Part shown: positions 7,694 to 45,036 of the stretch, piece after piece
Position numbering within the stretch: the stretch's first letter is position 1
How the letters are laid out: every line of letters begins with the position of its first letter
Assembly (NCBI GenBank): GCA_040004225.1
Contig: JBDUBI010000136.1
Span: forward strand, 1 to 45,496
DNA from: Acidobacteriota bacterium
GTDB taxonomy: Bacteria > Acidobacteriota > Thermoanaerobaculia > UBA5066 > Gp7-AA6
Length of the DNA: 45,496 nt
Direction of reading: 5' to 3'
Program-made: the position numbers and the translations under genes
The notes under the pieces: generated by a model
Databases searched by the model: none
The model's input: only the letters and a program-made list of their open reading frames with translations
What the model was told of the DNA's origin: nothing

Positions 7694-8178
7694 CCGGCGA
7701 GCCCCCTCTTCGCGTCGTCGAGACCGGCGTTCGCGTGCGTTACGCGGAGACGGACCGTATGGGGATCGTGTACCACGCGCATTACATCGTCTGGTTCGAG
7801 ATCGGCCGGACGGAGTTCTGCCGCGCCGCCGGAATCCCCTACCGGGCGATGGAAGAGGCGGGACTCCTGATCCTCGTCACGGGCGTCGAGTGCACCTACC
7901 GGCGATCGGCGCGATACGACGACGAAATCCGGATCCAGGCGCGCATGCCCGAGCTTTCGGGCCGCGGCCTCTCCTTTGCGTACGAGGTTCTCGGGCCGGG
8001 CGGCGTCCGCCTGGCCGACGGAGCCACGCGGCACGTGTTCGCCGATCCGGAGGGACGGCCCCGGCGCGCTCCGGACGAGATCGTCGCCCCCCTGGAACGT
8101 TTTCGTCGGGAGACGGACGGAGCGTCCACGTCACCGCGGCCCGGAGGAAACCGAAGGGGCATCTCCGACGTAGTTTGA
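7690..8178 (+). CDS. Acyl-CoA thioesterase, YbgC/4HBT hotdog family
   Basis: [29 protein letters not shown] is the typical YbgC/4HBT N-terminal block. TTG start overlaps the coaD stop (TTGA). Confidence 0.75.
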
Positions 8179-12083: not shown

Positions 12084-12566
12084 ATGAGTGCAACGATGAC
12101 GACCCCTCAGCCGGGCGGCCCCCCGGCGCTGGCGCCGGACCTCCTGGCCCGGCTCCAGAAGAGGCTCGCAGGCTCTCCCGCAATCGGCTGGCTCCACCCG
12201 GTCCTGGAAGAAATCTCGCTCGATCATGCCGTCCTGAAGCTGCCCTACCGCGAAGAGGTCAGCAACGGGTCCGGCACGGTCCACGGTGGAATCCTCGCGA
12301 CCCTGGCGGACACGGCCGTCGCCTTCGCACTCTCGACCAACTTCGACGGAAAGATGGGGTTCGCGACCGCGGACCTGACCATCCACTTTCTCCGTCGCGC
12401 ACGAGGAGACGTCTGGGCCCGCGCGCGCATCCTGAAGAAGGGGCGGCGCCTCAACATCGGAGAGGTCGAGATCGTGGACGCGGGGGACCGGCCGGTCGCC
12501 CGCGTGCTCGCCTCGTTTCTCCTGACGACCTCCTCGTTCGATTACGCACCGGAAGGGAAATCATGA
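12084..12566 (+). CDS. PaaI-family hotdog-fold thioesterase
   Basis: VHGGILATLADTAVAFAL core motif of the PaaI/4HBT-III family, 160 aa. Confidence 0.75.
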   Translation: MSATMTTPQPGGPPALAPDLLARLQKRLAGSPAIGWLHPVLEEISLDHAVLKLPYREEVSNGSGTVHGGILATLADTAVAFALSTNFDGKMGFATADLTIHFLRRARGDVWARARILKKGRRLNIGEVEIVDAGDRPVARVLASFLLTTSSFDYAPEGKS

Positions 12567-23776: not shown

Positions 23777-24760
23777 GTGCCGACCTGCCTGCTGACCGGC
23801 GCGACCGGCTTTCTGGGGTCTCACGTGGCCAGATCTCTGCTCGCGCGGGGGTGGAGCGTCCGGGCCCTGGTTCGCGGCGGGCCGGAACGCCTGGGGACGC
23901 TTCCCGCCGCCGGGGTGGAGGTGGTCGCCGGGGATCTCTCCGCCGCGACGGATCTTGACGCCGCCGCCTCTCGCGTCGACGCGGTCGTGCACGTCGCCGG
24001 GATCACGAAGGCGCGAACGCGAGAGGAGTATCGCGAGGGGAATGCGCGTGGAACCGCCCGCCTGGTCGACGCGGCGCGGCGGAGCGCCCCGGGGGCCCTC
24101 TTCCTCCTCGTGTCGAGCCAGGCGGCGGCGGGACCGGCGCGCGGCGGCCGCCCTGTCGCCGAGGAGGATCCGCCGCGGCCGGTCTCGTGGTACGGAGAAT
24201 CCAAGCGCGAGGGCGAGGAGGCGGTTCGAGCGGCGTGGCGGGGGCCGTGGGTCGTCATCCGGCCCTCCGTGGTTTTCGGGCCCGGCGACCGGGGGCTGCT
24301 CCTCCTTTTCCGGGCAGCGGCGAAAGGGTGGCTGCCGGTCCCGGCCGCGGACTCCCGGATTCAGCTGATCCGCGCGGAGCGGGCCGCGGACGCCATCGCG
24401 GCGGCGGCGGCGCGGCCGGACCTGGCGGGACGTGCGGGGTTTCTCGCCGATCCCGCCCCGAGGACGATCGGGGAGCTTTCCACCTTGATCGCCTCCCTGC
24501 CGCCGAAACGTCCCCGTCTGGTGGCGGTGCCCCGGGCCGCCGTGCGCGTGGCGGGGGCCGTGGAAACGGTCGTCGAGAGCCTGACGCGACGTTCCAGGCC
24601 TTTCAACGCCGACAAGGCACGGGAAATCCTGGCGGGCGACTGGATCTGCGACGGAACGCCCCTGGCGCGGGATCTGCGCCTTCCCGAGGCCCCCCCGCTC
24701 CGTGAGGACCTCGCGGCGACCTGGGGCTGGTACGTGCGGGAGGGCTGGCTCTCTTTGTAA
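23777..24760 (+). CDS. NAD(P)-dependent extended-SDR (epimerase/dehydratase-fold) reductase; candidate ceramide/3-keto-sphingoid reductase (CerR-like)
   Basis: LLTGATGFLGSHV Rossmann motif. YGESK (YxxxK) catalytic motif. GTG 23777 is preceded by CAGAAT plus 7 nt. The functional assignment comes from gene context. Confidence 0.6.
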   Translation: MPTCLLTGATGFLGSHVARSLLARGWSVRALVRGGPERLGTLPAAGVEVVAGDLSAATDLDAAASRVDAVVHVAGITKARTREEYREGNARGTARLVDAARRSAPGALFLLVSSQAAAGPARGGRPVAEEDPPRPVSWYGESKREGEEAVRAAWRGPWVVIRPSVVFGPGDRGLLLLFRAAAKGWLPVPAADSRIQLIRAERAADAIAAAAARPDLAGRAGFLADPAPRTIGELSTLIASLPPKRPRLVAVPRAAVRVAGAVETVVESLTRRSRPFNADKAREILAGDWICDGTPLARDLRLPEAPPLREDLAATWGWYVREGWLSL

Positions 24761-24764
24761 AATT

Positions 24765-24773
24765 TGCTAAGAT
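24765..24773 (+). promoter_or_regulatory. Extended -10-like box TGCTAAGAT upstream of the spt-like gene
   Basis: Located 5 nt after the SDR stop codon and 61 nt before ATG 24835, which has its own GGGAG RBS. Confidence 0.35.
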
Positions 24774-24834
24774 CGGGTCCGATTCGGGGCGTCCCGCGGG
24801 GCGGCCGCCTGTCATTTTTGGTGTGGGAGTGAAA

Positions 24835-26070
24835 ATGAGCAAAGTCGCTCCGGTGGCATTCGCGGCGCGGACATCGCCCCTTTTCGACAAGTGCTTCCGA
24901 TACGACGATGCGCACCGCATTCAGCGGGCGGGCCTCTACTCGTTTTTCCGGGTGGTCGATTCGGCGCAGGACCCGGAGGTCGTCATCGGCGGCCGCCGGA
25001 TGATCATGCTCGGTTCGAACAACTACCTGGGGCTGACGAACGACCCCCGGGTGAAGGAAGCCGCGATCGACGCCATCCGCAAGTACGGGTCCGGCTGCGC
25101 CGGAAGCCGCTTCTTGAATGGAACCCTCGACCTTCACGTCATCTTAGAAGAGAGACTCGCGAACTTCATGCGGCAGGACGCGGCGGTCGTTTTCGCGACC
25201 GGGTTCCAGGTGAATCTGGGAGCGATCTCCTGCCTGGTCGGCAAAGGCGACAGCGTCTATCTCGACAAGCAGGATCATGCCTGCATCATCGACGGCGCGC
25301 GGCTTTCCTTCGGAGAGGTCCATAAGTTCAAGCACAACGACCCGGCGGACCTTCGGCGGCAGATGAAAAACGACACGGGGAGCCGCGGAAAGCTCGTCGT
25401 CGTCGACGGCGTGTTCTCGATGGAAGGTGACATCGCGCCCCTGCCCGAGATCGTGGCGGTCGCTCGCGACTACGAAGCGGCCGTCATGGTCGACGATGCG
25501 CACGGCGTGGGCGTGCTCGGCCCGACCGGCCGCGGCACCGCAGAGCACTTCGGCCTGGAAGAGGAAGTCGATCTGATCATGGGGACGTTTTCGAAATCGA
25601 TGGCGTCTGTCGGAGGATTCATCGCCGGCGAGTCCACCGTCATCGACTACATCAAACATCGCGCACGGACCCTGATTTTCTCGGCGGCGCCGCCGCCGGC
25701 CTCCGTGGCGGCCGCCCTGGCCACAGTGGACATCATGGAGCGCGAGCCGGAGCGGCGCGAGCGGCTCTGGCAGAACACCCGGTTCTTCGCCGACGGCCTG
25801 CGGTCGCTCGGGCTCGATACGGGGGAATCCGAGACGCCGGTCGTGCCCGTTGTCGTGGGGGAGGACTTCACCGCGCTCCAGATGGTCCACCGCCTCCACG
25901 AGGAAGGCATCTTCGTCAATTGCGTGCTCTCTCCCGCGACGCCTCCCGGCCGGGCCCTCATCCGGACGTCCCTGATGGCCACACACACGCGGGATCAGCT
26001 CGTGCGGGCCCTCGAGTCGATCGAAAAAGTGGGGCGAGAAGTCGGGCTGGTCCGCTCCGTCGGCGCTTGA
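24835..26070 (+). CDS. spt: Alpha-oxoamine synthase, serine palmitoyltransferase-like
   Basis: GSNNYLGL, GSGCAGSRFLNGT, DDAHGVG and GTFSKSMASVGGF (PLP-Lys). From memory this looks like the Sphingomonas SPT form, not KBL GTLGKA or BioF TFGK. C-terminal PATPPGRALIRTS. GGGAG RBS 5 nt before ATG 24835. Confidence 0.65.
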   Translation: MSKVAPVAFAARTSPLFDKCFRYDDAHRIQRAGLYSFFRVVDSAQDPEVVIGGRRMIMLGSNNYLGLTNDPRVKEAAIDAIRKYGSGCAGSRFLNGTLDLHVILEERLANFMRQDAAVVFATGFQVNLGAISCLVGKGDSVYLDKQDHACIIDGARLSFGEVHKFKHNDPADLRRQMKNDTGSRGKLVVVDGVFSMEGDIAPLPEIVAVARDYEAAVMVDDAHGVGVLGPTGRGTAEHFGLEEEVDLIMGTFSKSMASVGGFIAGESTVIDYIKHRARTLIFSAAPPPASVAAALATVDIMEREPERRERLWQNTRFFADGLRSLGLDTGESETPVVPVVVGEDFTALQMVHRLHEEGIFVNCVLSPATPPGRALIRTSLMATHTRDQLVRALESIEKVGREVGLVRSVGA

Positions 26071-26148
26071 GGATTTGCCGCCGCCGGTTCTGACTCGTCC
26101 GCTCCCGCCGCCGGCCGCAGTGGAGCGCCGGAACAATCCGGATGAGCC

Positions 26149-27294
26149 ATGACGGACGCCTCGGTTTTCGTCCAGCCCATCGGACGTTCGAAGAAAGAGC
26201 TCTCGCGGTTCTTCGACGTGGCCGACGGGATCTATGCGGGCGACCCTCTCTGGGTCGCCCCCTTGCGGGACGACGTCGCCAAGGTTCTCGCCGCAAAAAA
26301 CCCCTTCTTCCTGCACGGCGAGATGCAGCTTTTCATCGCCTCCCGCGAGGGCCGCGACGCGGGGCGGATCGCGGCGATCGTCGACCGGAACCACAACGAC
26401 TTTCACCGCGATCGCACCGGATTCTTCGGCTATTTCGAGAGTGAGAACGACCCTTCGGTGGCGCGGGCCCTCTTCGACGCCGCAGCCGCATGGGTCCGCG
26501 AGCGGGGTATGGACACGCTCCGCGGTCCGGCCAACCCGACCTTGAACGACGAGGCGGGACTCTTAGTCGACGGGTTCGAGTCCTCTCCGGTGTTGATGAT
26601 GACGTACAACCCCCGCTACTACGTGGATCTCGTCTCAGGGGCGGGGTTCGCGAAGGTAAAGGATCTTCTGGCGTACTGGTTCGAGATCCAGCCCGGCCCG
26701 ATGGCGCGGCTGGCCCGGATAGCGGAACGGATCGCGCGGCGGGAAAAAGACGTGGTGGTGCGCAAGATCTCGAAGAGGACGCTCGCCGCCGACCTTCCGA
26801 AGATCCGCGAGGTCTACAACGCGGCGTGGGAGAAGAACTGGGGCTTCGTCCCCATGACGCCCGAAGAGATGGACTTCATGGCGAAACGCCTGAAGCCGCT
26901 GGTCGACGAGGACTTCCTGTTCCTCGCCGAGGCCCGACGGCCCGACGGCTCCCCCGAGCCCGTCGCTTTCCTTCTGGCACTCCCGGACTACAACATCGCG
27001 ATGAAGCCGTTGAAAGGACGCCTCCTTCCTTTTGGCTGGCTGAAATTCCTGCTCTCCTTGAAGAAGATCCGCTCGATGCGCGTGTTGACTCTCGGGATCA
27101 AGAAGGAGTGGAGACTGCGCGGGCTCCAGGCGGTCATGTTCGAAAAGGGTTTGAAGGCCGCGCTCGATCGCGACTATGTCGGGTGCGAGATGTCGTGGCT
27201 GCTGGAGGACAACGACGCGATCATTCGCTCCGCGGACTTCTGGGGCGGCCGCCTCTACAAGACATACCGTATGTACGACCGGAGGCTGGCGTGA
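26149..27294 (+). CDS. GNAT-fold N-acyltransferase family protein (~380 aa); candidate bacterial ceramide synthase
   Basis: Acyl-CoA-binding-like block IKKEWRLRGLQAVMF (variant of R/QxxGxA). Conserved RGPANPTLNDEAGLLVDGF. Sits between the spt-like gene and the PAP2 gene. Function is inferred from context. Confidence 0.5.
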   Translation: MTDASVFVQPIGRSKKELSRFFDVADGIYAGDPLWVAPLRDDVAKVLAAKNPFFLHGEMQLFIASREGRDAGRIAAIVDRNHNDFHRDRTGFFGYFESENDPSVARALFDAAAAWVRERGMDTLRGPANPTLNDEAGLLVDGFESSPVLMMTYNPRYYVDLVSGAGFAKVKDLLAYWFEIQPGPMARLARIAERIARREKDVVVRKISKRTLAADLPKIREVYNAAWEKNWGFVPMTPEEMDFMAKRLKPLVDEDFLFLAEARRPDGSPEPVAFLLALPDYNIAMKPLKGRLLPFGWLKFLLSLKKIRSMRVLTLGIKKEWRLRGLQAVMFEKGLKAALDRDYVGCEMSWLLEDNDAIIRSADFWGGRLYKTYRMYDRRLA

Positions 27295-27311
27295 CGACGG
27301 GGTCGTAAGGG

Positions 27312-27393
27312 GTGAGGCGGGAGTGAGGCGAAAAAGAGAAGAAGCGGCAGGCCCCAGCGATGAGCGCCTGACGCCTCACGCCTGACGTCTCAC
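27312..27393. repeat. GTGAGGCG x2 (27312-27330) facing a (CGCCTSA)x4 heptamer array (27365-27392)
   Basis: Read directly. 27323-27330 pairs perfectly with 27372-27379. Located between the convergent GNAT and PAP2 genes. The array encodes the last 6 codons and the stop of the PAP2 gene. Confidence 0.8.
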
Positions 27394-28311
27394 GGCCGAG
27401 GTGGTCAACCGGTCATAAATCCGGTCTCCCAGCGGGACCGTCACCGCGGCGAGGATCAACCCGGCGAGCACGTCGACGACGTAGTGATAGCGGCAGTAGA
27501 TTGTCGACAGGATCAGGCACGTCGCCACGGGCAGCAGCCACCAGAACAGGTCGCGCGCGCGCCGGAATGCCACGAGCAATACGGCGGCCGCGAGCATCGT
27601 GTGCCCGGAAGGAAAGACATCCAGCTTCGTGTGTTCGAGCTCGTCCAGCGTTTGCGCGATGGCGGCGGCCACGGGAGTCGACTCCAAGGAAACCGTCTGG
27701 CGGCTCGCCAGTGCAAAGCGGGGACCGAGCGCCGGTACCGCGAAATATCCGGCGTAGGACACGTAGTAGCAGAGGGTCAGCGTGAAAATGTAGCGCCGCA
27801 GGGCGGGGATGTCCCGGACCCACAGGACGAATCCGAGCGCCAGCGAAATGAAGTAGTAGGTTGTGTAGGCCACGTAGAAGACATTCGTGAGCCACGGCCG
27901 AACGAATTTTTCGAGCCAGACCGTCACGTCGACCCCGAAGAGCGCCCGGTCCGCGGCGATCAGCAGCGCGTCCCGCGCTCCGCCGCGGGCAGAGAAGATG
28001 AGAACTCCCAGTGTCTCGTAAAGCACGGGGATGAACGCCGCCGGGTAAAAGTCGAGGAGAAACCGGATGGGCCCCGGCAGCCCTTTTTCGCGCCGGACGA
28101 GCACCGCGACGATGGCGACGGCCAGCGCGAGCACGGCATACCGGAGCAGGAGGCCGCCGGGATCGCCGAGGCGGCGAGAGAGCACGAGCGTGAGCAGGGA
28201 CACGGCGCCCAAGGCGGCGAAGTTGATCGCTTCGAGCGGGCGAACGAGTCTGGCCTCCGGAGGCCGGAGGGCGCGGACGGTGCTCGAGGAGGAAGTTGTC
28301 CGCGCCGGCAC
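27376..28311 (-). CDS. PAP2-superfamily integral membrane transferase, sphingomyelin/IPC-synthase-like (PAP2_3-like)
   Basis: [13 protein letters not shown] and [11 protein letters not shown] match the SGHT and HY(T/V)xDV motifs of the sphingomyelin-synthase/Aur1 type. 6+ TM helices. Start is GTG 28311, preceded by GATAAT plus 6 nt on the minus strand. The listed extension to 28557 is Arg-rich and overlaps nfeD. Confidence 0.7.
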
Positions 28312-28317
28312 GGCGGG

Positions 28318-28323
28318 ATTATC
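28318..28323 (-). promoter_or_regulatory. -10-like GATAAT, 6 nt upstream of GTG 28311 (PAP2 gene, leaderless candidate)
   Basis: The minus strand reads GATAAT-CCCGCC-GTG. Confidence 0.35.
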
Positions 28324-28425
28324 GCCGAAGGCGTTTTCCGGGGGGACGGCATACCGGCCGTTGGCCCCCCGTCCCGCCGGGCGATCTCGACCCCTGCCAG
28401 GACGCCTTCGCGCCGTGCGGCACGG

Positions 28426-28431
28426 TAGACT
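28426..28431 (+). promoter_or_regulatory. -10-like TAGACT, 8 nt upstream of ATG 28440 (nfeD, leaderless candidate)
   Basis: TAGACT-TCCTGCGC-ATG. Confidence 0.35.
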
Positions 28432-28439
28432 TCCTGCGC

Positions 28440-29741
28440 ATGCCGGCGCGGCTCGCCTTCCTGCTTCTTCTCTCAGGGGCCGCCGCGTTCCCGGCGGGCG
28501 CCGCTCCTGCCCCCCTCGTCGTCGTGGGGCGAATCGACGGTCCGGTTCATCCGGCATCCGCCGCTTACGTCCGCCGTCTGCTCTCGGGGGCGCGGGAGAG
28601 CGGCGCGAGGCTCGTCATCCTGGAGCTCTCGACGCCCGGCGGTCTCCTGACCTCCACCCGGGAAATGACGACGTCGATCCTCGAATCTCCCGTGCCGGTC
28701 GCGACCTACGTCGCACCGTCGGGGAGCTCGGCGGCGTCTGCGGGGTTTTTCCTGCTCCTGGCGGGAGACGTCGCGGCGATGGCGCCCGGAACCAACTCGG
28801 GCGCGGCGCACCCCGTCGGGGGCCAGGGAGAGGACCTGTCGAAAACGATGACCTCCAAGGTCGAACAGGACGCGCGCGCGTTCATCCGCAGCCTCGCGCG
28901 GCAGCGGGGAAGGAACCCGGAAAAGGCGGAATCCGCGGTGACTTCGAGTGCCTCGTTCACCGAGACGGAAGCGAAGGGAGCGGGCCTCGTCGAAATCATC
29001 GCGCGGGACCGCGCAGATCTCATTCACCAGCTCGACGGACGAAAGCTCGCCCGGGTCAACGGGTCGTCGCAGACTCTGGCCCTGGCGGGCGCGCGGGTCG
29101 AGAGCCGGGAAATGGGATCGCTCGAGAGACTGCTAGGGGTCGTCTCTCACCCGAACATCGCCTATGTCCTCTTCCTCGCCGGCCTGGTCGGGCTCTACTT
29201 CGAGCTCGCCAGCCCCGGCGCCATCCTTCCCGGGGTCGTCGGGGGGATCTCGCTTCTCCTGGCTCTCTATGCCTTTTCAGTTCTGCCCGTGAGTCTCGCG
29301 GGCATTGCCCTGATTCTTTTCGCCATTCTTCTCTTCATCGCCGAGGTGAAGGTGACGAGCCACGGATTGCTGGCCGTCGGAGGAGCCGTCGCCCTTCTCG
29401 CCGGCTCGGCGATGCTGTTTTCCGGACGCGCAAACGCCGCCGGATACCGCGTGGATCTCTCGATCGTCGTGCCCGCCGTCGCGCTGACACTTGCGGTCGT
29501 GGGGTTCCTCGCCTGGAATACGGTGCGGCTTCGGACTCTACCGGTGCGCACGGGGCGCGACAGCCTTCTCGGCCAGAGTGCTGTCGTCGTGCGGCCGATG
29601 GACGGAGAGGGTCGAGGGACTGTCATGGTCCACGGCGAATACTGGGACGCGTGCGGGGCGCCGGCCGCGGCGGTCGGCGAGCGGGTGCGCGTCGCGAGAG
29701 TCGAAGGCTTCACACTCCACGTCGAACGGAGGCTGTCATGA
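28440..29741 (+). CDS. nfeD: NfeD-family membrane-bound ClpP-class serine protease
   Basis: Signal peptide [29 protein letters not shown] and [14 protein letters not shown] (ClpP-fold Ser). Central TM bundle. C-terminal OB-like NfeD domain (GEYWDA...[14 protein letters not shown]). Confidence 0.85.
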
Positions 29742-30505
29742 GTCAGGTGTTTTCGTTTCCGGGTCTGATTTTGGCGGCGTTCGTCGGCCTGATCCTCTTT
29801 TTCAAATGGGTCAACATCCTGAAGGAGTACGAGCGGGCCGTCACGTTCTGGCTCGGCCGCCTGGGCTCGAAGCCGAAGGGGCCCGGGCTCGTGCTGATCT
29901 TCTGGCCGTTCGAGACGATGGTCCGCATCTCGCTCCGGACGATCGTTCACGACGTGCCCGCTCAGGACATCATCACCCGGGACAACGTATCGGTGAAAGT
30001 GAACGCGGTCGTCTACTTCCGCGTCGTCGAGCCCGACAAGGCCGTCGTACAGGTGGAGAACTATCTCTACGCGACCTCCCAGCTGGCGCAGACCACCCTT
30101 CGCAGCGTGCTCGGTGAAGCCATGCTCGACGAGCTCCTGTCCGAGCGCGAGAAGTTGAATGTCGCCCTTCAAAGCGTCATCGATCAGCATACTCAGCCGT
30201 GGGGGATCAAGGTGTCGCTCGTGGAAGTGAAGCAGGTGGACCTTCCCCCGGAGATGCAGCGCGCCATGGCGCGCCAGGCGGAGGCGGAGCGGGAGAAGCG
30301 GGCGAAGATCATCCACGCAGAGGGGGAGTTCCAGGCGGCCGCGCAGCTCTCCCGCGCCGCGGAAGTCATCGGCCGCGAGCCGGCGACCCTCCAGCTGCGC
30401 TATCTCCAGACGCTGACGGAGATCGGAAGCGAGAAGAACACCACGATCATCTTTCCACTGCCGATCGACCTTCTTCGCGCGTTCCTTCCGAAGGAGACGA
30501 AGTAG
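29738..30505 (+). CDS. SPFH/band-7 protein, stomatin-like (slipin)
   Basis: [40 protein letters not shown] and [21 protein letters not shown] overlap with nfeD. Confidence 0.9.
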
Positions 30506-32235: not shown

Positions 32236-33786
32236 ATGACGGTGTCGCGCTGGAAGACGCCCGCGGCCGGCGTGCTCTCCGGAGTTCTCTTCGCGCTGGC
32301 CTTTCCGCCGTACGGCGCGACGGTCCTCCTTCCGCTGGCTCTGGTTCCATGGATCGCCCTCCTTTCGGTGGAAGAAAGCCGCGGCCGCGCACTCCTCTCG
32401 GGCCTGATGTTCGGCATGGCGTTCTGGTGCGCGAGTGTCCCCTGGATCTCCTACGTCGTGACCGTGTACGGAGGACAGCCGAAGGCGATGGGTGTCGTGT
32501 GCGTCGGCCTCGTGGCATTGATCTGCGCCGAGTGGACCGCGATCGTCGGCTGGGGGGTCGCGGCTCTGGCGCCTTCCCATTCGTGGAAGCGCCTCGCCGC
32601 ATTTCCCCTTCTCTGGATGGCCGCGGAGCACGCCAGGTCGGTGATCTACGGCGGCTTTCCGTGGAACCTGACGGGATGGGCGCTCGCCCGAAGGCCGGTG
32701 TGGATCCAGACGGCTTCCCTCTGGGGCGTGTACGGAGTGGGATTCGCGGTCGCGGCGGTCGCGACCCTCCTCGCCGCGTTTTCCGTGCGACGGCGCCCGG
32801 TCTTCCTGGCCGCCGCCGCCGCCGTAGTGCTGTCAGCCGGAGTCGCGGGAGCGATCCGGCTGACCTCGCCGGTCGAAGCCGGCAAACCGCTCCGCGTCCG
32901 GCTGATCCAGCCGAACCTCGCCGAAGAGGATCGGCGCACCTCCGACAGGACGGCGGAAAGCTATCGGCAGGTGCTCGCGCGCGGCTCCGATGCGGGCCTT
33001 GCGGGAGCCGACCTGATCGTCTTCCCGGAATCGGCGTTCCCCATGTACTGGGAGGCGAGCGCCCGGCTCCGCGAAGATCTGAACCGACTGTCGGCGGATT
33101 GCCGCTGCGCGATTCTGTTCAACGACGTCACCTCGGAGCCCGGCGGCCGGGCGTCCAACGCCGCGCGGCTCGTGACGCCGGAGGGGCTCGCGCAGGGGAT
33201 CTACCGCAAGGTGCATCTCGTTCCTTTCGGCGAATACGTCCCGCTGCCGCGGCTCTTCTTTTTCGCCCGCCAGATATCCCGGGAGATCGGGGAGTTTCTT
33301 CCGGCGGAGACTCCCGTCGTCCTGCGTTCGGGACAGCTCGCGCTCGGAGTGGGCATCTGCTACGAGATCATCTATCCCGGCCTGGCGCGGCGCCAGGTTG
33401 CCGACGGCGCGAACCTGCTCGCGACAATCTCGAACGACTCGTGGTACGGGCGCGCGGGAGCCCAGGAGCAGCATTTCGCGGGGGCGCTCTTCCGCGCGGT
33501 CGAGAACGGGCGTTACCTGGTGCGCGCGGCGATCACGGGGATCTCGGGGATCGCCGATCCGCGCGGGCGTATTCTGGCGGAGATCGCGCCGAATACGCCG
33601 GGGACGGCCGTCGGGACAATCTCTCTCCTCGGAGGCTCGACCCCGTGGACCCGATGGGGGTACGTTCTCCCGCGGATCGCCGACGCCGCCGCGGCCGGCG
33701 TGCTACTCTCGGGCCTCGCCCGGTGGGGGCGCGAACGCGCGGCGAGGCGCCGGCGGCGGGCGGCCTCCCACGGAGACATCACATGA
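32236..33786 (+). CDS. lnt: Apolipoprotein N-acyltransferase
   Basis: N-terminal polytopic domain followed by a CN-hydrolase domain: VFPESAFP (Glu), KVHLVPFGEYVP (Lys), GICYEIIYP (Cys). Confidence 0.88.
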   Translation: MTVSRWKTPAAGVLSGVLFALAFPPYGATVLLPLALVPWIALLSVEESRGRALLSGLMFGMAFWCASVPWISYVVTVYGGQPKAMGVVCVGLVALICAEWTAIVGWGVAALAPSHSWKRLAAFPLLWMAAEHARSVIYGGFPWNLTGWALARRPVWIQTASLWGVYGVGFAVAAVATLLAAFSVRRRPVFLAAAAAVVLSAGVAGAIRLTSPVEAGKPLRVRLIQPNLAEEDRRTSDRTAESYRQVLARGSDAGLAGADLIVFPESAFPMYWEASARLREDLNRLSADCRCAILFNDVTSEPGGRASNAARLVTPEGLAQGIYRKVHLVPFGEYVPLPRLFFFARQISREIGEFLPAETPVVLRSGQLALGVGICYEIIYPGLARRQVADGANLLATISNDSWYGRAGAQEQHFAGALFRAVENGRYLVRAAITGISGIADPRGRILAEIAPNTPGTAVGTISLLGGSTPWTRWGYVLPRIADAAAAGVLLSGLARWGRERAARRRRRAASHGDIT

Positions 33787-34905
33787 CCTCTCGCGACGAC
33801 CTCATTTCCTCGCTGACGAACGCCTCGGAGCGGCTGCTGTCGCTTCGGGGCTATCTTTGATCTCGACGCCGCGCGGAGCGCGCTCGAAAGTCTGAGAGAA
33901 AAGCAGGGCGCAGCCGATTTCTGGAGCCGCCCGGAAGAGGCCCAGAACGTTCTGCGGCAGGCGAGCTCCCATGAGCGCCGCATTGGCACGGCGACCCGGC
34001 TCGATGAGCTCCGGGACGAGCTCCAGACCTTAGCCGAGCTGCTGCGCGAGGGTGAGGACGCCGACGCCGATGCGCGCGATGTCCTCAAAAAAGCCGAGAC
34101 GTTCGGCGACGACCTCGAGCTCTCCGTCAAGATGGGGAATCCGGAGGACGAATCAAACTCGTGGCTCATGATCCACGCGGGCGCGGGAGGTACGGAGTCC
34201 CAGGACTGGGCGGAGATGCTGCTCCGGATGTACATGCGTTTCGCGGAGTCCCGCGGCTGGAAGGCGGAGCTGATCGACCGCCAGGACGGCGAAGAAGCGG
34301 GTCTCAAGAGCGCGACGCTCCACGTCGTCGGCGACCACGCGTACGGGTACCTGAAGGGCGAGATGGGGGTGCACCGGCTGGTTCGCATCTCGCCCTACGA
34401 TTCCGCGCAGCGCCGGCACACCTCCTTCGCGTCGATTTACGTCTCCCCGGAAATCGATGAGCACATCGAAATCGAGATTCTGGACAAAGACCTGCGGGTG
34501 GACACCTACAGGTCGAGCGGCGCCGGGGGCCAGCACGTCAACGTGACCGATTCGGCGGTGCGGATCACACACCTGCCGACGGGGATCGTGGTGACGTGCC
34601 AGAACGAGCGCAGCCAGGGCCGCAACCGGGACACCGCCATGAATGTTTTGCGCGCGCGGCTGTATCAGAAGGCGCTCGACGAGCGCCGTTCCGACGAGGA
34701 AAAGAAGGTGGGTGAGAAGAAGGCAATCGAGTGGGGGAGCCAGATTCGCTCGTACGTCCTTCATCCCTACCGGATGGTCAAGGACCACCGCACGGGTCAT
34801 GAGACGGGCGATACGGACAAGGTGCTCGACGGCGGCATCACGCCCTTCATAGACGCGTACTTGAAGTCCGCGGCGGAAGGATCTCGAGCTTCGACCGGCC
34901 CGTGA
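33783..34905 (+). CDS. prfB: Peptide chain release factor 2, requires programmed +1 frameshift: join(33783..33857,33859..34905)
   Basis: ORF0 MTSRDDLISSLTNASERLLSLRGYL ends at CTT TGA (33855-33860), preceded by GGGGC-TAT as in E. coli. The +1 frame continues DLDAARSALESL... into the listed ORF, which carries SPYDSAQRRHTSFA and the GGQ motif (SGAGGQHVN). Confidence 0.92.
33847..33861 (+). promoter_or_regulatory. prfB: prfB +1 frameshift site (internal SD-like GGGG, slippery CTT, in-frame TGA)
   Basis: The sequence GGGGCTATCTTTGAT has the same spacing as the E. coli AGGGGGTATCTTTGAC autoregulatory site. Confidence 0.85.
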
Positions 34906-36537: not shown

Positions 36538-38208
36538 TCAGCTTCCCGCGCGCTCCAGCGCCGACAGCTGCTCCGCCCGGGCGAGGTTCGTCTTTGCGGG
36601 AGCAAACGCCGCATCCTGAGCGAGGGACTTCCGGAAGGCTTCGACCGCGCCGGAGAAGGAGCGTTTCCGCGTCCGCACCACGCCGAGGTTGTTCCAGAGC
36701 GTCGCCGATTTCGAATTCGTATCGAGCGCCCGGACGAGCGCGGCCTCGGCCTCGTCGAGCCTGCCTGCGTCCGCCAGGCTTCCGCCGAGCCCCGCCGCCG
36801 CTTCCTCGTTGCCGGGTTCGAGGTCGAGCGCCGAGCGAAACGCGGTCGCGGCGTCTTCGGGTTTCTTCAGGGCCAGCCGGGTGTGGCCGAGCGCCGTCCA
36901 GACCGACGTCTCGTTCGGCGCGAGTCGCGAGGCTTCGGCCAGCTCGCGTTCGGCCTCGCGCAACTTTCCGCGCCGGCGAAAGGCCCTGCCGAGGTTTTCG
37001 TGCCCCGCCGACCGCCCGGGCGCCAGCCGAACGGCCTCCATCAACTCTTCCGTCGCGCGTTCGGCCTGATCGGAACGGAAGAGAAAGACCCCGAAGTCGT
37101 TGTGCGCGTCGGCGGAGGCCGGATCGATCTCGATAGCGCGTCCGTAGGCGATCCTGGCGGCGGTCCTGTCTTTCAGCTCCTCCATCGAGCGTCCGAGCCC
37201 GAGAGCCGCCCCCACGTTCTTGCCGGAGAGCTCGAGGGCCCGCCGGTAATGGCTCGCGGCCGTGCTCCACTTCGTCTGCCGCTCCGCCAGCCGGCCGAGC
37301 GCGTACTCCGCGCGCGAGTTGCCGGAGTCCAGCACGAGCGCCGCCGTCGCTTCCCGTTCCGCGTCGCCCTCCTGCCCGAGAGCCAGGGCCGAGTCCGCGA
37401 GGATGCGGTGGGATTCGGAGCTTTTCGGGTCGAGCTCCAGGGCGCGCGCCGCCGCCGCCTGAGCGGCGCGGAAGTCGCCGTTCTTGAATGCCGCTTCGGC
37501 GGTCTCGAGAAGCGGACCGGCTGCGGATGCGCCGCTCGGACCCGCTGCTCCCGCCGCGGGAGCCGAGACGGCCGGGCCGGAGGGAGAAATCGGCCCGCTC
37601 GTCACCAGGTTGCGTTCCAGATCTGACGCGCGTTTGCGCGACGCGTCCGCTTCCGCGGATCGACCGAGGCGGTCGTAGGCGTCTCCGAGCAGACGGTGAA
37701 TCTGCGGATCCGCCGAGCTCTCCGCTCTTTTCAGGTCGTAGAGAGCTTCCTCCGCCTTGCCGTCGGCCAGCTTTTCCCGGGCGGTGCGCTTTAATTCCGC
37801 CAGATCCGCCGCGGGCGCCGTCGCCCCCGCGATTTCCGTCCGAACCGCTCGGGCGAGGCGCACGAAATCCGGGCTGTAGAAGTCGGCCACGACATCGAGG
37901 GTGGGGCGCGCGGTGAACGCCACTTTCAGGCTCTCCCGGGCCGCGCGGGAATTGCCGGCGATGAAGTAGGCCCAGCCGCTCTGGAACGCGAGCTCGGCCC
38001 GGCGGTCGGCCACCGAAGCGGCGTCCGCGGCGCGGGCATATTTCTCGCCGGCTTCCTGGAAGCGACCCGCGTCGAAAGCGCGCTTGGCCTCGGCCTCCGA
38101 TCCCGCGTCGGGGGTGGCCGCCAGCTGAGCCGGCGAGAGGCTTCCCGCGAGTGCGAGGGAGAGAGCGAGCAGCGCGACGCGGAGGCGCGTCACCGTGACG
38201 CGCGTCAC
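36538..38208 (-). CDS. Tetratricopeptide-repeat protein, secreted/periplasmic
   Basis: More than 10 TPR-like A/L/Y/G-patterned 34-residue repeats. Signal-like LRVALLALSLALAG. GTG 38208 overlaps the kinase stop (GTGA). Confidence 0.75.
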   Translation of the reverse strand: MTRVTVTRLRVALLALSLALAGSLSPAQLAATPDAGSEAEAKRAFDAGRFQEAGEKYARAADAASVADRRAELAFQSGWAYFIAGNSRAARESLKVAFTARPTLDVVADFYSPDFVRLARAVRTEIAGATAPAADLAELKRTAREKLADGKAEEALYDLKRAESSADPQIHRLLGDAYDRLGRSAEADASRKRASDLERNLVTSGPISPSGPAVSAPAAGAAGPSGASAAGPLLETAEAAFKNGDFRAAQAAAARALELDPKSSESHRILADSALALGQEGDAEREATAALVLDSGNSRAEYALGRLAERQTKWSTAASHYRRALELSGKNVGAALGLGRSMEELKDRTAARIAYGRAIEIDPASADAHNDFGVFLFRSDQAERATEELMEAVRLAPGRSAGHENLGRAFRRRGKLREAERELAEASRLAPNETSVWTALGHTRLALKKPEDAATAFRSALDLEPGNEEAAAGLGGSLADAGRLDEAEAALVRALDTNSKSATLWNNLGVVRTRKRSFSGAVEAFRKSLAQDAAFAPAKTNLARAEQLSALERAGS

Positions 38209-40064
38209 TGGGCGTGTTCGGTCGGGGCGGGGGGAGACCATGTCTTCTTCTCTCCTTCAGGGATAGCAACCTCTGCCGTGTGGGGATTCCACCCGGCGCG
38301 GGACAACGTGATCTTGTGCGTTCCGGACGGGAGGGAGACCGTGAGCGCGCCCGACAGCACGCCGTGGAACTTCGAGTCGATGAGAACGGTCGCGCCCGAC
38401 CAGGCGGGCGCCTCGATGACGAGCGCACCGATCGGGAAGCGGTACGCGATCGGGGCCGCTCCCGAAGACCCGACCTGAAAGTCTTTCTGGTACCGGGGAA
38501 GGCCGGCTCCCTCGAAGCGCACCTGGTGGGCGCCCTGAGTCAGCTCCACGGTTCGCGCGGGGATCGAAGGCCCGACCTTCCTTCCGTCGACGTACAGGGT
38601 GGCGGAGGGGATCGAGCTGAACTGGACCGGAAAGCGGCGGGCCGGCCGTGCCGGCTCGGGGGCCGGCACCGCGGCGGGTTCGGCCGGTTTCGCGGCCGCC
38701 GGAATCGGAACGGCCGTCGGGGCGGCGGGGACAGCGTCCCGTCCGAGCTGAGGGCTGGGGAAGGCGATCGGAGCGGTTAAGACCGGCTCCGCGGCGGGAC
38801 GCGGCCCGGAGGAACGGCCCGAAATCGCGGGCGCGCTCGCGGCCCGCGCGGTGCCAGCGTGGGACGAAAGCTTCCAGGCGGCAAACAGGACTCCGAGCAC
38901 CGCGACCGCGGCGGTGCCCGCCCAGAGCACCCAGCCGGGGCCGCGGCCGCGCGCGCCGCCCGAGCCCGTGCGTCCCGCCGTGGTGCGGTCGGCCGGCTCC
39001 TGAAAGTGGACGAGCTCGAGGTTCGCGGGCGGAAGCGGGATGGCGACCTGAGTCGGGGTGTGGTCATACGTTTCCGCCCGGACTCGCGCCAGCGCCCCGG
39101 ACGGCGGCGTGACGCCGATGGGGGGTCGTGGACCCACCGTCGTTCCGCGCGAGGGCGTGCGGGGCGCGGGATTGGCCTCGGCCGCGCTCACGCCGCGAGT
39201 GGGAGTCAGCGGCGAGCCGGAATTCGGGTTGGTCAGGAATTGAGAAGAATCGCCCACGAGCTCGCGGTACACCGTTTGAAGATCCTGACGAAACGCCTCC
39301 ATGGAGGCATATCGGCTGTCGGCGCTCTTTTCCATGGCGCGGGAAACGACCTCCGCGAGCGAAGCGGGGACGGCGGGCGCAAGGGACGTGATGGGCTCGG
39401 GCGTGTCGTTTAAGATCTTGTAAAGGACGGTGGAGAGGTGCTCGCCGCGGAACGGCTTGCGCTGGGTGAGCAGCTCGTACGCGAGGATCCCGAGCGAGAA
39501 GAGGTCGGTTCGTCCATCGAGCCCCTCCCCCCGGATCTGCTCCGGTGCGAGATAGGCGGACGTGCCGAGCGTGATCCCCGTCTGAGTCAGGCTCGATTCG
39601 GAGAGCAGGGACTTGGCGATTCCGAAGTCCATGATCTTGACGGAGCCGTCGTCGAGGATTCGGATGTTCGACGGCTTGATGTCGCGGTGGATGATCGACT
39701 GGCGGTGCGCGTAACCGAGTCCGTCCGCGATCGACATCAGGATTTCGATCTTCCGGGGGACCGAAAGCTGCTCGCCGCGCTTGACGATTTTGTCCAGGTC
39801 CTCGCCCGTCAGGAACTCCTGGACGATGTACGGGACCCCCTCCTCAACGCCGAAATCGTAGATCGTGGTGATGTTGCGATGGTGCAGGTTGCCGGCGAGC
39901 TCCGCCTCCCGGAAGAACCGGCTTCGGATCTCTTCGTCGTTCAGCTGGCAGGTCTTCACCGCGACCGTGCGCTTGATGAAGGGATCGCGGCCGCGATAGA
40001 CGGCCCCGAAGCCGCCGACTCCGATCTGTTCGGAGATTTCGTATTTCCCGATTTTTTTGGTCAT
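38205..40064 (-). CDS. Hanks-type Ser/Thr protein kinase with TM helix and C-terminal PEGA-like domains
   Basis: GVGGFGAVY, AVK, HRDIKPSNI, DFGIA and APE motifs. TM helix WVLWAGTAAVAVLGVLFAAW. C-terminal beta-rich repeats ending IPEGEKK (PEGA-like). ATG 40064 (TTG 40067 in the ORF track). Confidence 0.88.
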   Translation of the reverse strand: MTKKIGKYEISEQIGVGGFGAVYRGRDPFIKRTVAVKTCQLNDEEIRSRFFREAELAGNLHHRNITTIYDFGVEEGVPYIVQEFLTGEDLDKIVKRGEQLSVPRKIEILMSIADGLGYAHRQSIIHRDIKPSNIRILDDGSVKIMDFGIAKSLLSESSLTQTGITLGTSAYLAPEQIRGEGLDGRTDLFSLGILAYELLTQRKPFRGEHLSTVLYKILNDTPEPITSLAPAVPASLAEVVSRAMEKSADSRYASMEAFRQDLQTVYRELVGDSSQFLTNPNSGSPLTPTRGVSAAEANPAPRTPSRGTTVGPRPPIGVTPPSGALARVRAETYDHTPTQVAIPLPPANLELVHFQEPADRTTAGRTGSGGARGRGPGWVLWAGTAAVAVLGVLFAAWKLSSHAGTARAASAPAISGRSSGPRPAAEPVLTAPIAFPSPQLGRDAVPAAPTAVPIPAAAKPAEPAAVPAPEPARPARRFPVQFSSIPSATLYVDGRKVGPSIPARTVELTQGAHQVRFEGAGLPRYQKDFQVGSSGAAPIAYRFPIGALVIEAPAWSGATVLIDSKFHGVLSGALTVSLPSGTHKITLSRAGWNPHTAEVAIPEGEKKTWSPPAPTEHAQ

Positions 40065-40139
40065 CAAATTTGCTACAGGTCGTAACAGTTTAAACGAAGC
40101 GAAACGCCTCGGGGCGCGCGCTTCTCGTGCTCCCGCCGC

Positions 40140-41816: not shown

Positions 41817-41834
41817 TCGATCGGGGGATTTTTG

Positions 41835-43016
41835 ATGCAGGACATCGTGATTCTCGACGGCGCGCGCACTCCCATGCTGGAGTACAACGGCGCCTTTTCG
41901 GACGTCTCGGCGATCGATCTCGGGGCGCACGCCGCGCGCGAGGCATTGGCCCGCACGGGGACCGATCCCGGGCAGATCGACCACGTCATCTTCGGGAACG
42001 CTCTTCAGACTTCGGGCGACGCGATCTACGGAGCCCGCCACGTCGGGCTGAAGGCGGGGGTCCCGAAGGAAGTGCCGGCCCTGACGGTCAACCGTCTGTG
42101 CGGGTCGGGGTTCGAGTCGATCGTTCAGGCGGCGCACCGCATTCTCCTCGGAGAGGCGAAGACGGTTCTCGCGGGCGGGATGGAGAACATGTCCGCCGCG
42201 CCGCACGTCATCCGGGGCGCGCGGAAGGGGCTTCGCCTGGGGCAGGGGGCCCTCGAGGACTCGCTCATGGTCGCTCTGCTCGACTCGTACTGCGGCCTCT
42301 ACATGGCGCAGACGTCGGACCGCGTGGCCGCGAAGTACGGGATCACGCGGGAAGAGCAGGACGAGTACGCCTTTTCTTCGCAGCAGAGGGCCGCGGCGGC
42401 GCAGAGCGCCTGCCGGCTCTCGGAGGAAATCGCGCCGATCGACGTGAAGGCAGGTCGGAAGACCGTCCGAATCGAAAAAGACGATCACCTGCGGCCCGAC
42501 ACGACCCTGGAAGGTCTCGCCGCTCTGGCCGCTTCCTTCGGCGAGGGTGGCCAGGTAACGGCCGGAAACGCCTCCGGGATCGTGGACGGGGCGGCGGCGG
42601 TCGTGGTCACCTCGGCGGAGGAAGCCCGCGCCCGCGGGAAGAAGCCGCTCGGCCGGCTGATCGGATGGGCTGTCACGGGAGTGGAACCGGAGCTGATGGG
42701 CCTGGGGCCCGCGCCCGCCGCTCGCGCCGCTCTCGAAAAAGCCGGTCTCCGCCAGGGCCAGATCGACCTCTGGGAGATCAACGAGGCTTTTGCGGGTCAG
42801 ATCCTCGGTGTCGTCCGCGAGCTCGGGCTCGATCGCGAGAAGTTGAACGTCAACGGCGGGGCGATCGCGCTCGGGCATCCGCTCGCCGCGACAGGAACCC
42901 GCTGCACGTTGACGCTCCTGAAGGAAATGCGGCGCCGCGGCGTCCGCTACGGGCTGGCTGGCGCGTGCATCGGGGGGGGACAGGGAATCGCGGTGGTGCT
43001 CGAAGCGGGATCGTGA
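41835..43016 (+). CDS. Acetyl-CoA C-acetyltransferase (thiolase II)
   Basis: VNRLCGSG (active-site Cys), NGGAIALGHPLAATG and CIGGGQGIA C-terminal motifs. Confidence 0.9.
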   Translation: MQDIVILDGARTPMLEYNGAFSDVSAIDLGAHAAREALARTGTDPGQIDHVIFGNALQTSGDAIYGARHVGLKAGVPKEVPALTVNRLCGSGFESIVQAAHRILLGEAKTVLAGGMENMSAAPHVIRGARKGLRLGQGALEDSLMVALLDSYCGLYMAQTSDRVAAKYGITREEQDEYAFSSQQRAAAAQSACRLSEEIAPIDVKAGRKTVRIEKDDHLRPDTTLEGLAALAASFGEGGQVTAGNASGIVDGAAAVVVTSAEEARARGKKPLGRLIGWAVTGVEPELMGLGPAPAARAALEKAGLRQGQIDLWEINEAFAGQILGVVRELGLDREKLNVNGGAIALGHPLAATGTRCTLTLLKEMRRRGVRYGLAGACIGGGQGIAVVLEAGS

Positions 43017-43094
43017 GGAGCGGCGCTGGACTGGACGGAACGGATCCTCGGGTTCCCGGTCCGCACCGCGGCCGTCGCCTCTTTTCTGGAGGAC

Positions 43095-43352
43095 TTGAAG
43101 GCGCGGCGGGCGGCCGACTTGAACGGCGTCCTCGTGACGTTCAACGACGGCAGCCTCTGCCGCGACGCGCTCCGTCACTGGCTTCTGAAAGAATGGATCG
43201 TGATTGCGCCCCACTCGCCGCTGACGGCGCTCCCGGGGCGAGAGTTCGCGCGGGATTTGACGCTGAGGCAGTTCTGCGGGGAAAGCGCGGCCGCACAGAA
43301 ACGCGCGCCCGACGCAGAAGAGGGAGGATGGGACGGCGATGACGATTCGTAA
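43095..43352 (+). CDS. Small hypothetical protein; start uncertain (frame is open and coding-like from the thiolase TGA at 43014)
   Basis: Strong G/C third-position bias and non-junk composition (VLVTFNDGSLCRDALRHWLLKEWIVIAPHSPL). The only canonical-type start is TTG 43095. 14-nt overlap with hbd. Confidence 0.35.
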   Translation: MKARRAADLNGVLVTFNDGSLCRDALRHWLLKEWIVIAPHSPLTALPGREFARDLTLRQFCGESAAAQKRAPDAEEGGWDGDDDS

Positions 43353-44199
43353 AGTGGGCGTCCTGGGGGCCGGGTTGATGGGTTCGGGAATCGCGGAGGT
43401 GGCGGCCAAAAGCGGCTACGAGACGGTCGTGCGGGAGGTTTCGGACGACCTCGGCCGGAAGGGGATCTCGAGGATCGAAGGCTCCCTGGCGAAGGCCGTC
43501 GAGAAAAAGAAAATGACCCCGGAGGAGAGGGACGCGGCGCGCGGGCGGCTGTCCACGACCACGAAACTGTCGGACCTCGCGGACTGCGACATCCTCGTCG
43601 AAGCCATCATCGAAAACCTCGACTTGAAAAAGGAGACGTACCGGGAGCTCGACCGGACCTGCAAGCCCGAGACGATCTTCTGCTCGAACACGTCTTCGCT
43701 CACAATTACCGAAATGTCCGCCGCAACGTCGCGTGCGGACCGGTTCGCGGGCCTTCATTTCTTCAACCCCGTGCCGGTCATGAAGCTCGTCGAGGTGGTG
43801 CGGACGATCGCGACTTCGGAAGAGACTTTCGAAACGGTGTTTCAGTTCGCGCAGTCCCTGGGAAAGGATCCAATCCGCGCGCGCGACAATTCGGGCTTCG
43901 TCGTCAACAGGCTCCTCGTTCCCTATCTCCTCGATGCCGTGCGCGCCCTGGAAGAGGGAGTCGGCAGCCCGGAGGACATCGACAAGGGAATGGAGCTCGG
44001 CTGCGGGCATCCCATGGGGCCGCTGAAGCTGCTCGACTTCGTCGGTCTCGACACGACCTTTTACATCGCTCAGATCATGTTCGACGAATACCGGGAAAAG
44101 CGATTCGCGCCGCCGCCTCTGTTGAAGCGCATGGTTCTGGCGGGGCGTCTGGGCCGCAAGTCCGGCCGCGGATTCTACGAATACGGCGGCGCAAAGTGA
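43339..44199 (+). CDS. hbd: 3-hydroxybutyryl-CoA / 3-hydroxyacyl-CoA dehydrogenase
   Basis: VGVLGAGLMGSGIA Rossmann motif, NTSSL, HFFNPVP, and the C-terminal GRKSGRGFY motif. GGGAGGA RBS. Confidence 0.9.
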   Translation: MTIRKVGVLGAGLMGSGIAEVAAKSGYETVVREVSDDLGRKGISRIEGSLAKAVEKKKMTPEERDAARGRLSTTTKLSDLADCDILVEAIIENLDLKKETYRELDRTCKPETIFCSNTSSLTITEMSAATSRADRFAGLHFFNPVPVMKLVEVVRTIATSEETFETVFQFAQSLGKDPIRARDNSGFVVNRLLVPYLLDAVRALEEGVGSPEDIDKGMELGCGHPMGPLKLLDFVGLDTTFYIAQIMFDEYREKRFAPPPLLKRMVLAGRLGRKSGRGFYEYGGAK

Positions 44200-45016: not shown

Positions 45017-45036
45017 GACTACCGAAAGGACGCACC

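Follow-up and report, generated by a model that had tools for sequence, protein, structure and literature searches.

In Caulobacter crescentus, ceramide is reportedly made by the products of three genes, the serine palmitoyltransferase (Spt) CCNA_01220, the N-acyltransferase bCerS (CCNA_01212) and the reductase CerR (CCNA_01222). A Black Sea metagenome survey reported genes for Spt-like proteins from 38 phyla, in many cases co-localised with those for bCerS and CerR, and the spt, bcerS and cerR genes of Bacteroidota are unclustered (PMC11334938). At the head-group step, the AUR1 homologue BT_1522 is required for phosphatidylinositol (PI)-dihydroceramide synthesis in Bacteroides (PMC9246714), and bacteria therefore use the PAP2_3 family on ceramide. 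Here we describe a four-gene locus on contig JBDUBI010000136.1 of an Acidobacteriota metagenome-assembled genome (MAG; assembly GCA_040004225.1), whose 45,496 nucleotides are referred to below as the window. Its closest named relatives are MAGs of Thermoanaerobaculia. The locus encodes an extended-SDR reductase, an alpha-oxoamine synthase (AOS), a tandem-GNAT N-acyltransferase and a polytopic PAP2_3 membrane protein, and probably serves sphingolipid biosynthesis (ceramide, then a phosphosphingolipid) in an uncultured soil-type Acidobacteriota bacterium. That the first three genes make ceramide is well supported and very likely; for the PAP2 protein, the role of a ceramide phospho-head-group transferase is the favoured interpretation, with somewhat better than even prospects.

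As in Caulobacter, an AOS, a tandem-GNAT N-acyltransferase and an extended-SDR reductase are clustered, and their homology to the Caulobacter proteins can be traced through Sphingomonas and Escherichia coli loci. The locus differs in its compact form, that of a probable three-gene operon, in an Spt of the Sphingobacterium rather than the alphaproteobacterial type and in the absence of AcpR, AasR, LptF2/G2 and cpg genes from the window, an Aur1-like PAP2 gene standing in place of the kinase-based Cpg head-group route. With Aur1/inositol phosphorylceramide (IPC) synthase and BT_1522 the PAP2 protein has in common the PAP2_3 family, the His-His-Asp motif set and the best structural match; it differs from them in a sequence too dissimilar for HMMER to match it with solved IPC synthases and in having neither a Kei1 partner nor an inositol-synthesis gene nearby and, unlike BT_1522, its gene lies in an spt locus instead of an inositol-lipid cluster.

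Layout of the locus

The original prediction had placed here three co-directional genes and a convergent one, sufficient together for a head-group-modified sphingolipid. Four open reading frames (ORFs) in this arrangement were found, every motif that it had quoted is present in them, and all four have a coding-type G+C content at third codon positions on a contig of 68% G+C. The support for a four-gene reading is computational throughout. The features are as follows.

23777-24760, forward strand: cerR-like extended-SDR reductase (327 aa, GTG start), from Pfam Epimerase and alignments with the SDRs of sphingolipid loci
24823-26070, forward strand: spt-like AOS of the Sphingobacterium/CFB type (415 aa), from NCBIfam, PDB and a neighbour-joining tree
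26149-27294, forward strand: bCerS-family tandem-GNAT N-acyltransferase, YghO family (381 aa), from AlphaFold2/Foldseek and alignments with the GNATs of sphingolipid loci
27341-27355, reverse strand: terminator-like hairpin and T-run in the 81-nt gap between the GNAT and PAP2 genes, from a consensus scan alone and thus weak evidence
27376-28245, reverse strand: PAP2_3 (Aur1/IPC-synthase-like) polytopic membrane protein, candidate ceramide phospho-head-group transferase (~289 aa), from Pfam, homologues and Foldseek

The gaps between the SDR, AOS, GNAT and PAP2 genes measure 62, 78 and 81 nt in that order, and cerR, spt and bcerS probably form one transcript; the PAP2 gene is convergent to this trio, with its stop at 27376. 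The SDR ORF opens at 23717 (an alternative GTG start), and the Rossmann motif TGATGFLG follows directly after 23777. For the PAP2 protein, the ORF is open to 28557, and its start was set at ~28245 because homologues, 290-300 aa long, align only from residue 105. Neither tRNA nor Rfam elements were found in the window. Homologues of acyl carrier protein (ACP), acyl-AMP ligase and LptF/G are likewise absent from its whole length, which bears out the earlier remark that no ACP or acyl-ACP synthetase gene is adjacent.

The three co-directional genes

The AOS contains the blocks GTFSKSMASVGGF, GSGCAGSRFLNGT and PATPPGRALIRTS, matches Pfam Aminotran_1_2 (198 bits) and keeps the pyridoxal phosphate (PLP) and catalytic residues H159, D231, H234, K265 and R390 (S. 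paucimobilis numbering), residues common to all AOS enzymes and hence no proof of specificity. Among NCBIfam models SerpalmtaseCFB fits it best; the score of 556.6 bits falls short of the curated equivalog cut-off of 640 but exceeds that of any non-Spt model by about 100 bits, with a BioF/Kbl-related subfamily (452.8), KBL (407.5) and BioF (401) next. Two entries for the SPT of Sphingobacterium multivorum (3a2b and 8guh, 454 bits) top the PDB sequences, with Thermus BioF/KBL (341 bits), Sphingomonas SPT (300), KBL (268-280), cysteate acyltransferases (247-265), BioF (226), ALAS (208) and CqsA (142) below them. Although it comes from another phylum, the crystallised S. multivorum enzyme is 51% identical to the AOS over 386 residues with zero gaps, and the GSGCAGSRFLNGT and PLP-lysine blocks are near-identical in the two proteins. 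Moreover, a neighbour-joining tree groups the AOS with S. multivorum SPT and with every AOS that adjoins a homologue of the GNAT gene, and splits off E. coli KBL, Thermus KBL and E. coli BioF (83/100 bootstraps). The order of the models, the PDB ranking and the tree agree with the original assignment, and by these sequence comparisons the AOS is a serine palmitoyltransferase-type enzyme, not KBL or BioF.

The mutual similarity of AOS enzymes, visible in the KBL and BioF scores of 407 and 401 bits, could in principle point to a kbl-tdh threonine catabolism pair, or to a bioF biotin gene, amid unrelated neighbours. However, Spt models and structures score at least 100 bits higher, the tree parts KBL and BioF from the AOS clade, the SDR is without an L-threonine dehydrogenase (TDH) match at E<=1e-5 in the PDB, and in some genomes the AOS is fused to the GNAT protein. 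This explanation, which has practically no probability left, was rejected on the Spt-like score and tree position of the AOS and on the missing TDH match.

An AOS that uses alanine, glycine, cysteate or another amino acid, so that the product is a sphingolipid-like aminolipid (a 1-deoxyceramide or a sulfonolipid analogue), would leave the PAP2 protein with no 1-OH to modify. Such a specificity could be accommodated by a score that lies below the SerpalmtaseCFB equivalog cut-off of 640 bits, by the detection of cysteate-C-fatty acyltransferases as relatives (265 and 247 bits) and by the ability of Spt to accept alanine (PMC11334938); it is nevertheless improbable, given that the match to S. multivorum SPT lies ~190 bits over that to the cysteate enzyme, that the two blocks named above are shared almost unchanged with this SPT and that the conserved linkage to an Aur1-like enzyme argues for a free 1-OH.

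In alpha-, beta- and gamma-proteobacteria, ACP and acyl-ACP-synthetase genes are reported to go with spt (PMC9386255). Their absence from the locus fits an Spt of the Sphingobacterium type.

The SDR, which carries TGATGFLG and YGESK, matches Pfam Epimerase (102 bits, 4e-29) and, in the PDB, generic epimerase and NDUFA9-like proteins, with no SDR-type threonine dehydrogenase among its matches at E<=1e-5. It aligns over its full length with the SDRs of Sphingomonas, E. coli, Roseomonas and Streptomyces sphingolipid loci (28-38% identity, E 1e-21 to 1e-37), identity being 37-38% for those of Streptomyces and Roseomonas and 31% (E 3e-21) for the Sphingomonas gene directly upstream of acpR-spt (CC_1164 position), which is the position of cerR in Caulobacter. 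As far as alignments can tell, the protein matches the reductases of sphingolipid loci and not threonine dehydrogenase, in keeping with the CerR role first proposed for the extended SDR upstream of the AOS.

The GNAT protein has no sequence match in Pfam, NCBIfam or PDB. Its AlphaFold2 model (pLDDT 84) is a tandem GNAT, for which Foldseek retrieves tandem GNATs as best matches (2wpw and 7q3a, E 9e-14 to ~1e-13), and the family is very large, with 7333 representatives (50% identity) at E<=0.001. Homologues were reached by tblastn of plasmid records, which gave full-length relatives at 33-41% identity, and by a search of all representatives. The protein aligns end-to-end with the GNATs of Sphingomonas, Roseomonas, Streptomyces and E. 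coli (YghO) sphingolipid loci (33.5-38.5% identity, E 1e-68 to 1e-81), in each of which the matched gene is the sole GNAT gene. These loci are ordered as follows.

Sphingomonas parapaucimobilis: NAD(P)H-binding protein, ACP, AOS, ATP-binding protein, lptF, lptG, desaturase, N-acetyltransferase
Roseomonas: ACP and AOS; two LptF/G genes, then GNAT; acyl-AMP ligase and SDR
E. coli PN43 (NZ_MG591698.1): yghO beside acyl-AMP ligase, SDR, ACP, AOS, lptG and lptF
Streptomyces: AOS, GNAT, SDR

The link to Caulobacter bCerS runs through the S. parapaucimobilis gene, whose product is 35% identical to the GNAT protein over its full length (E 3e-68). Swit_3905, Swit_3906 and Swit_3908 are orthologues of Caulobacter LptF2 (CC_1156), LptG2 (CC_1155) and bCerS (CC_1154), Swit_3908 being 45% identical to CC_1154 (E 5e-109; PMC11324152 Table S2B), and the lptF-lptG-x-GNAT order of S. 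parapaucimobilis mirrors that of Swit_3905/3906/3908, so that its GNAT gene occupies the bCerS position. A second link leads to E. coli, in which the UTI89 locus with yghO has been drawn as a sphingolipid locus (bioRxiv 10.64898/2026.04.12.717747, a 2026 preprint). YghO aligns with 96% of the GNAT protein at 33.5% identity and its gene also sits beside fatty acyl-AMP ligase, SDR, ACP, AOS, lptG and lptF genes; this locus differs from ours in being of the proteobacterial ACP/acyl-AMP-ligase type and in having no PAP2 gene. Judged by homology, the 381-aa protein is very probably a member of the bCerS family, as had been proposed for the ~380-aa GNAT downstream of the AOS, and similarity to the bCerS-position gene is joined by linkage to spt across many phyla (see below); a by-product of the same comparison is the placement of the E. 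coli orphan YghO in the bCerS family. The yghO cluster of E. coli PN43 (NZ_MG591698.1, 1-20943) adjoins the glc operon, and this record, filed as a plasmid, for that reason looks chromosomal.

In the proposed pathway, Spt would join L-serine and an acyl-CoA to give 3-ketosphinganine, a dedicated ACP or acyl-ACP synthetase being unnecessary as in Sphingobacterium-type enzymes. The bCerS homologue would N-acylate 3-ketosphinganine and the CerR homologue would reduce the 3-keto group, yielding dihydroceramide, with the order of N-acylation and 3-keto reduction borrowed from the Caulobacter model.

The convergent PAP2_3 gene

In Pfam, the PAP2 protein scores 70.2 bits with PAP2_3 (cut-off 27), 43 with PAP2 and 28.5 with PAP2_C. 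Its FPSGHT and RYHYVVDV motifs are invariant across 29 homologues, as are the individual residues S213-G214-H215, H254 and D258, the preceding position being occupied by PALGPR; family-wide, the motifs read YP, GPR, FPS[GS]H and R[YF]HYxxD. Neither the protein nor its GNAT-linked family has KxxxxxxRP, the C1 motif of phosphatases. Possession of C2 (SGH) and C3 (HxxxD) without C1 is typical of Aur1 and sphingomyelin-synthase transferases. With animal sphingomyelin synthase and SMSr the protein shares the HY[TV]xD[VL] and SGH(T) motifs and the PAP2_C match, but its structural match to SMSr is weaker than that to IPC synthases: in a Foldseek search with the AlphaFold2 model (pLDDT 85), yeast Aur1 (9ivc_A) and an IPC synthase-ceramide complex (9vj4_A) rank first and second, with TM-scores of 0.51-0.57 over 281-298 columns, and PgpB (TM 0.39), LpxE and SMSr (TM 0.34) follow lower down. 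The original prediction of an Aur1/sphingomyelin-synthase-type transferase is compatible with PAP2_3 membership, His-His-Asp motifs, fold and gene linkage, and transferase function itself stays an inference.

The protein could instead be a lipid phosphate phosphatase acting beside three genes that make ceramide. Its substrate might then be ceramide-1-phosphate, a sphingoid-base phosphate or a phosphorylated head-group intermediate, in parallel with the PgpA-like step of Bacteroides inositol lipid synthesis. Members of the PAP2 superfamily are mostly phosphatases, and NCBIfam gives weak matches to LpxE and PgpB, both of which turn up in the fold search too; a profile of the family run against PDB sequences finds weak C2/C3 matches alone, to PgpB, YodM and acid phosphatases (E 0.015-0.5). 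Against a phosphatase stand the best Pfam model, PAP2_3, together with the match to PAP2_C, which represents the C-terminal part of sphingomyelin synthase, the missing C1 motif, the full-length structural matches to IPC synthases (TM 0.51-0.57 versus 0.34-0.39) and the lack of a nearby ceramide kinase gene to supply the substrate. On balance a phosphatase is a clearly less probable, if serious, alternative to a head-group transferase.

As such a transferase, the Aur1-like PAP2_3 protein would employ its His-His-Asp site in transferring a phospho-alcohol from a glycerophospholipid, phosphatidylethanolamine (PE), phosphatidylglycerol (PG) or PI, to the 1-OH of ceramide, with release of diacylglycerol and formation of a phosphosphingolipid. 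Since there are no inositol genes nearby, a head group derived from PE or PG is the simplest guess.

Directly beside the PAP2 gene, at 28296-30505 on the forward strand, lie genes for an NfeD membrane protease and a Band_7 (stomatin-like) protein. This neighbourhood is conserved solely in close Acidobacteriota relatives, and for that reason probably reflects synteny, not functional linkage.

Linkage across phyla and implications

Gene linkage was scanned in one genome per GTDB species, with an alignment of 13 GNAT sequences as query (a 29-sequence version being too divergent). The scan returned 80 GNAT loci with 40-88% identity, from Acidobacteriota, Verrucomicrobiota, Gemmatimonadota, Ignavibacteria, Planctomycetota, Nitrospirota, Eisenbacteria, Zixibacteria, Calditrichota, Chloroflexota and others. 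Neighbours within 5 kb of the GNAT gene are given below for all loci and for those with at least 5 kb of sequence on both sides.

AOS homologue: 51 of 80 loci; 31 of 41 with full flanks
SDR homologue: 43 of 80 loci; 28 of 41 with full flanks
PAP2 homologue: 30 of 80 loci; 18 of 41 with full flanks
All four genes together: 20 of 80 loci; 15 of 41 with full flanks

With an iterated PAP2 profile, the GNAT-adjacent PAP2 genes form one full-length family (profile positions 2-286) present in 31 of 81 loci, all copies but one lying within 1.2 kb of the GNAT gene. When end-truncated copies are included, about 32 of the 80 loci have a PAP2 homologue no more than 1.6 kb from the GNAT gene, and the remaining 2-10 kb flanks hold a single one. 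Linkage between GNAT and PAP2 genes is far beyond chance.

The genes occur in at least four different orders. SDR-AOS-GNAT with a convergent PAP2 gene is found in this window, in Nitrospirota and in deltaproteobacteria; SDR-PAP2-GNAT-AOS, all co-directional and hence with PAP2 inside the operon, in Bryobacterales and Solibacteraceae; AOS-GNAT-SDR-PAP2 in Eisenbacteria and Gemmatimonadota; and a GNAT gene convergent on an AOS-SDR-PAP2 unit in Verrucomicrobiota. Two representatives (P0133 and P0217) are AOS::GNAT fusion proteins; one fusion, of 780 aa, occurs on independent contigs, where its gene is preceded by an SDR gene and followed by a PAP2_3 gene in flanks that are otherwise unrelated. 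The compact all-in-one layout to which the original prediction drew attention is therefore real but not special to this contig, as it recurs in MAGs from six or more phyla. A crude all-against-all clustering of flanking ORFs, which is noisy at this G+C content, brought out no fifth gene with conservation beyond the close relatives in Acidobacteriota.

That the PAP2 gene is a mere syntenic neighbour, encoding for instance an undecaprenyl-PP or lipid A phosphatase, would suit the two close relatives (70% identity; L001 and L002), which share the whole 15-kb neighbourhood with the window and in which adjacency therefore proves little. The same PAP2 family, however, adjoins the GNAT gene in Verrucomicrobiota, Eisenbacteria, Gemmatimonadota, Nitrospirota, delta/Desulfobacterota, Latescibacterota and Armatimonadota, in loci with varying flanks, order and orientation, and a chance neighbour is highly improbable. 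There is an even chance that the PAP2_3 protein is part of a widespread uncharacterised bacterial family of ceramide phospho-head-group transferases (CPE, CPG or IPC synthases) that travels with bCerS in at least eight phyla.

Several points weigh against the proposed pathway. The phosphosphingolipid head groups of Caulobacter are made by another route, through ceramide kinase and Cpg. Roughly half of the full-flank GNAT loci lack a PAP2 neighbour, all 80 scan loci come from MAGs, phosphatases of the PAP2 superfamily have the same C2/C3 residues, and the Foldseek E-values for the TM-scores of 0.51-0.57 are marginal (~1e-3). The AOS score of 556.6 bits, below the equivalog cut-off of 640, leaves serine and acyl specificity not assured; the connection from the GNAT protein to CCNA_01212, via a positional Sphingomonas orthologue, is indirect but short; and no N-terminal signal peptide was found in the SDR, whose Rossmann motif lies within ~10 residues of its start, while Caulobacter CerR has been reported to be periplasmic (PMC11087976).

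Some loci depart from the four-gene pattern. In L014, L019, L033 and L087 (also L021 and L040), GNAT and PAP2_3 genes are adjacent and neither AOS nor SDR lies within the available flanks; loci of this kind are mostly from Verrucomicrobiota, one of them in a MAG labelled Akkermansia muciniphila. In these the GNAT-PAP2 pair seems tighter than that of GNAT and spt, and either spt is located elsewhere in the genome or the pair acts on another substrate. On an Acidobacteriota chromosome (OY761556.1, 10001-15763), the GNAT gene adjoins genes for a divergent AOS (37% identical to that of the window), a fatty acyl-AMP ligase and an SDR; this is a second type of cluster in Acidobacteriota, with the proteobacterial ACP/ligase-type layout and without a PAP2 gene. 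A search for cultured carriers found solely a MAG labelled Candidatus Solibacter usitatus (P0513).

Elsewhere in the window, on the forward strand unless stated otherwise, the following were observed.

7214-8178 and 12084-12566: genes for a cytidylyltransferase-like protein and, after it, a 4HBT thioesterase; another 4HBT thioesterase is encoded 4 kb downstream
33783-34905: prfB (release factor 2) with the classic programmed +1 frameshift; the short ORF in frame 0 stops at CTTTGA (33855), and the PCRF/RF-1 domains carry on in the +1 frame
36538-40067, reverse strand: a Ser/Thr protein kinase with a C-terminal PEGA domain, adjoining a large TPR-repeat protein
41832-44978: thiolase, 3-hydroxyacyl-CoA dehydrogenase and enoyl-CoA hydratase, a fatty-acid beta-oxidation-type trio
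45019-45495: an open ORF after this trio, running off the contig end

The searchable literature yielded no report of sphingolipids in Acidobacteriota. The taxon, to which the original prediction also drew attention, is on its own only mildly surprising, since Spt-like genes are already reported from 38 phyla. The same literature held no paper that ties a PAP2 gene to bacterial spt/bcerS clusters and no bacterial ceramide phospho-head-group enzymes beyond BT_1522 and the kinase-based route of Caulobacter. The three core genes represent a further case of the known Spt-bCerS-CerR system, and the conserved PAP2 fourth gene appears to be undescribed; with it, the locus is a variant in architecture and a candidate source of an enzymatic step not yet characterised.

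Few bacterial groups are more abundant in soil than Acidobacteriota, whose membrane lipids (iso-diabolic acid and precursors of branched glycerol dialkyl glycerol tetraethers) serve as environmental proxies; a ceramide/phosphoceramide pathway, if confirmed, would add a lipid class to their envelope biology. The PAP2_3 family, genomically linked to bCerS in many phyla, gives the head-group step a concrete candidate that can be tested, and would improve the prediction of sphingolipid producers from metagenomes. If the assignment is true, a eukaryote-like Aur1/sphingomyelin-synthase-type route to phosphosphingolipids, different from the kinase-based one of Caulobacter, would operate in Acidobacteriota, Verrucomicrobiota, Gemmatimonadota, Nitrospirota, Eisenbacteria and others.

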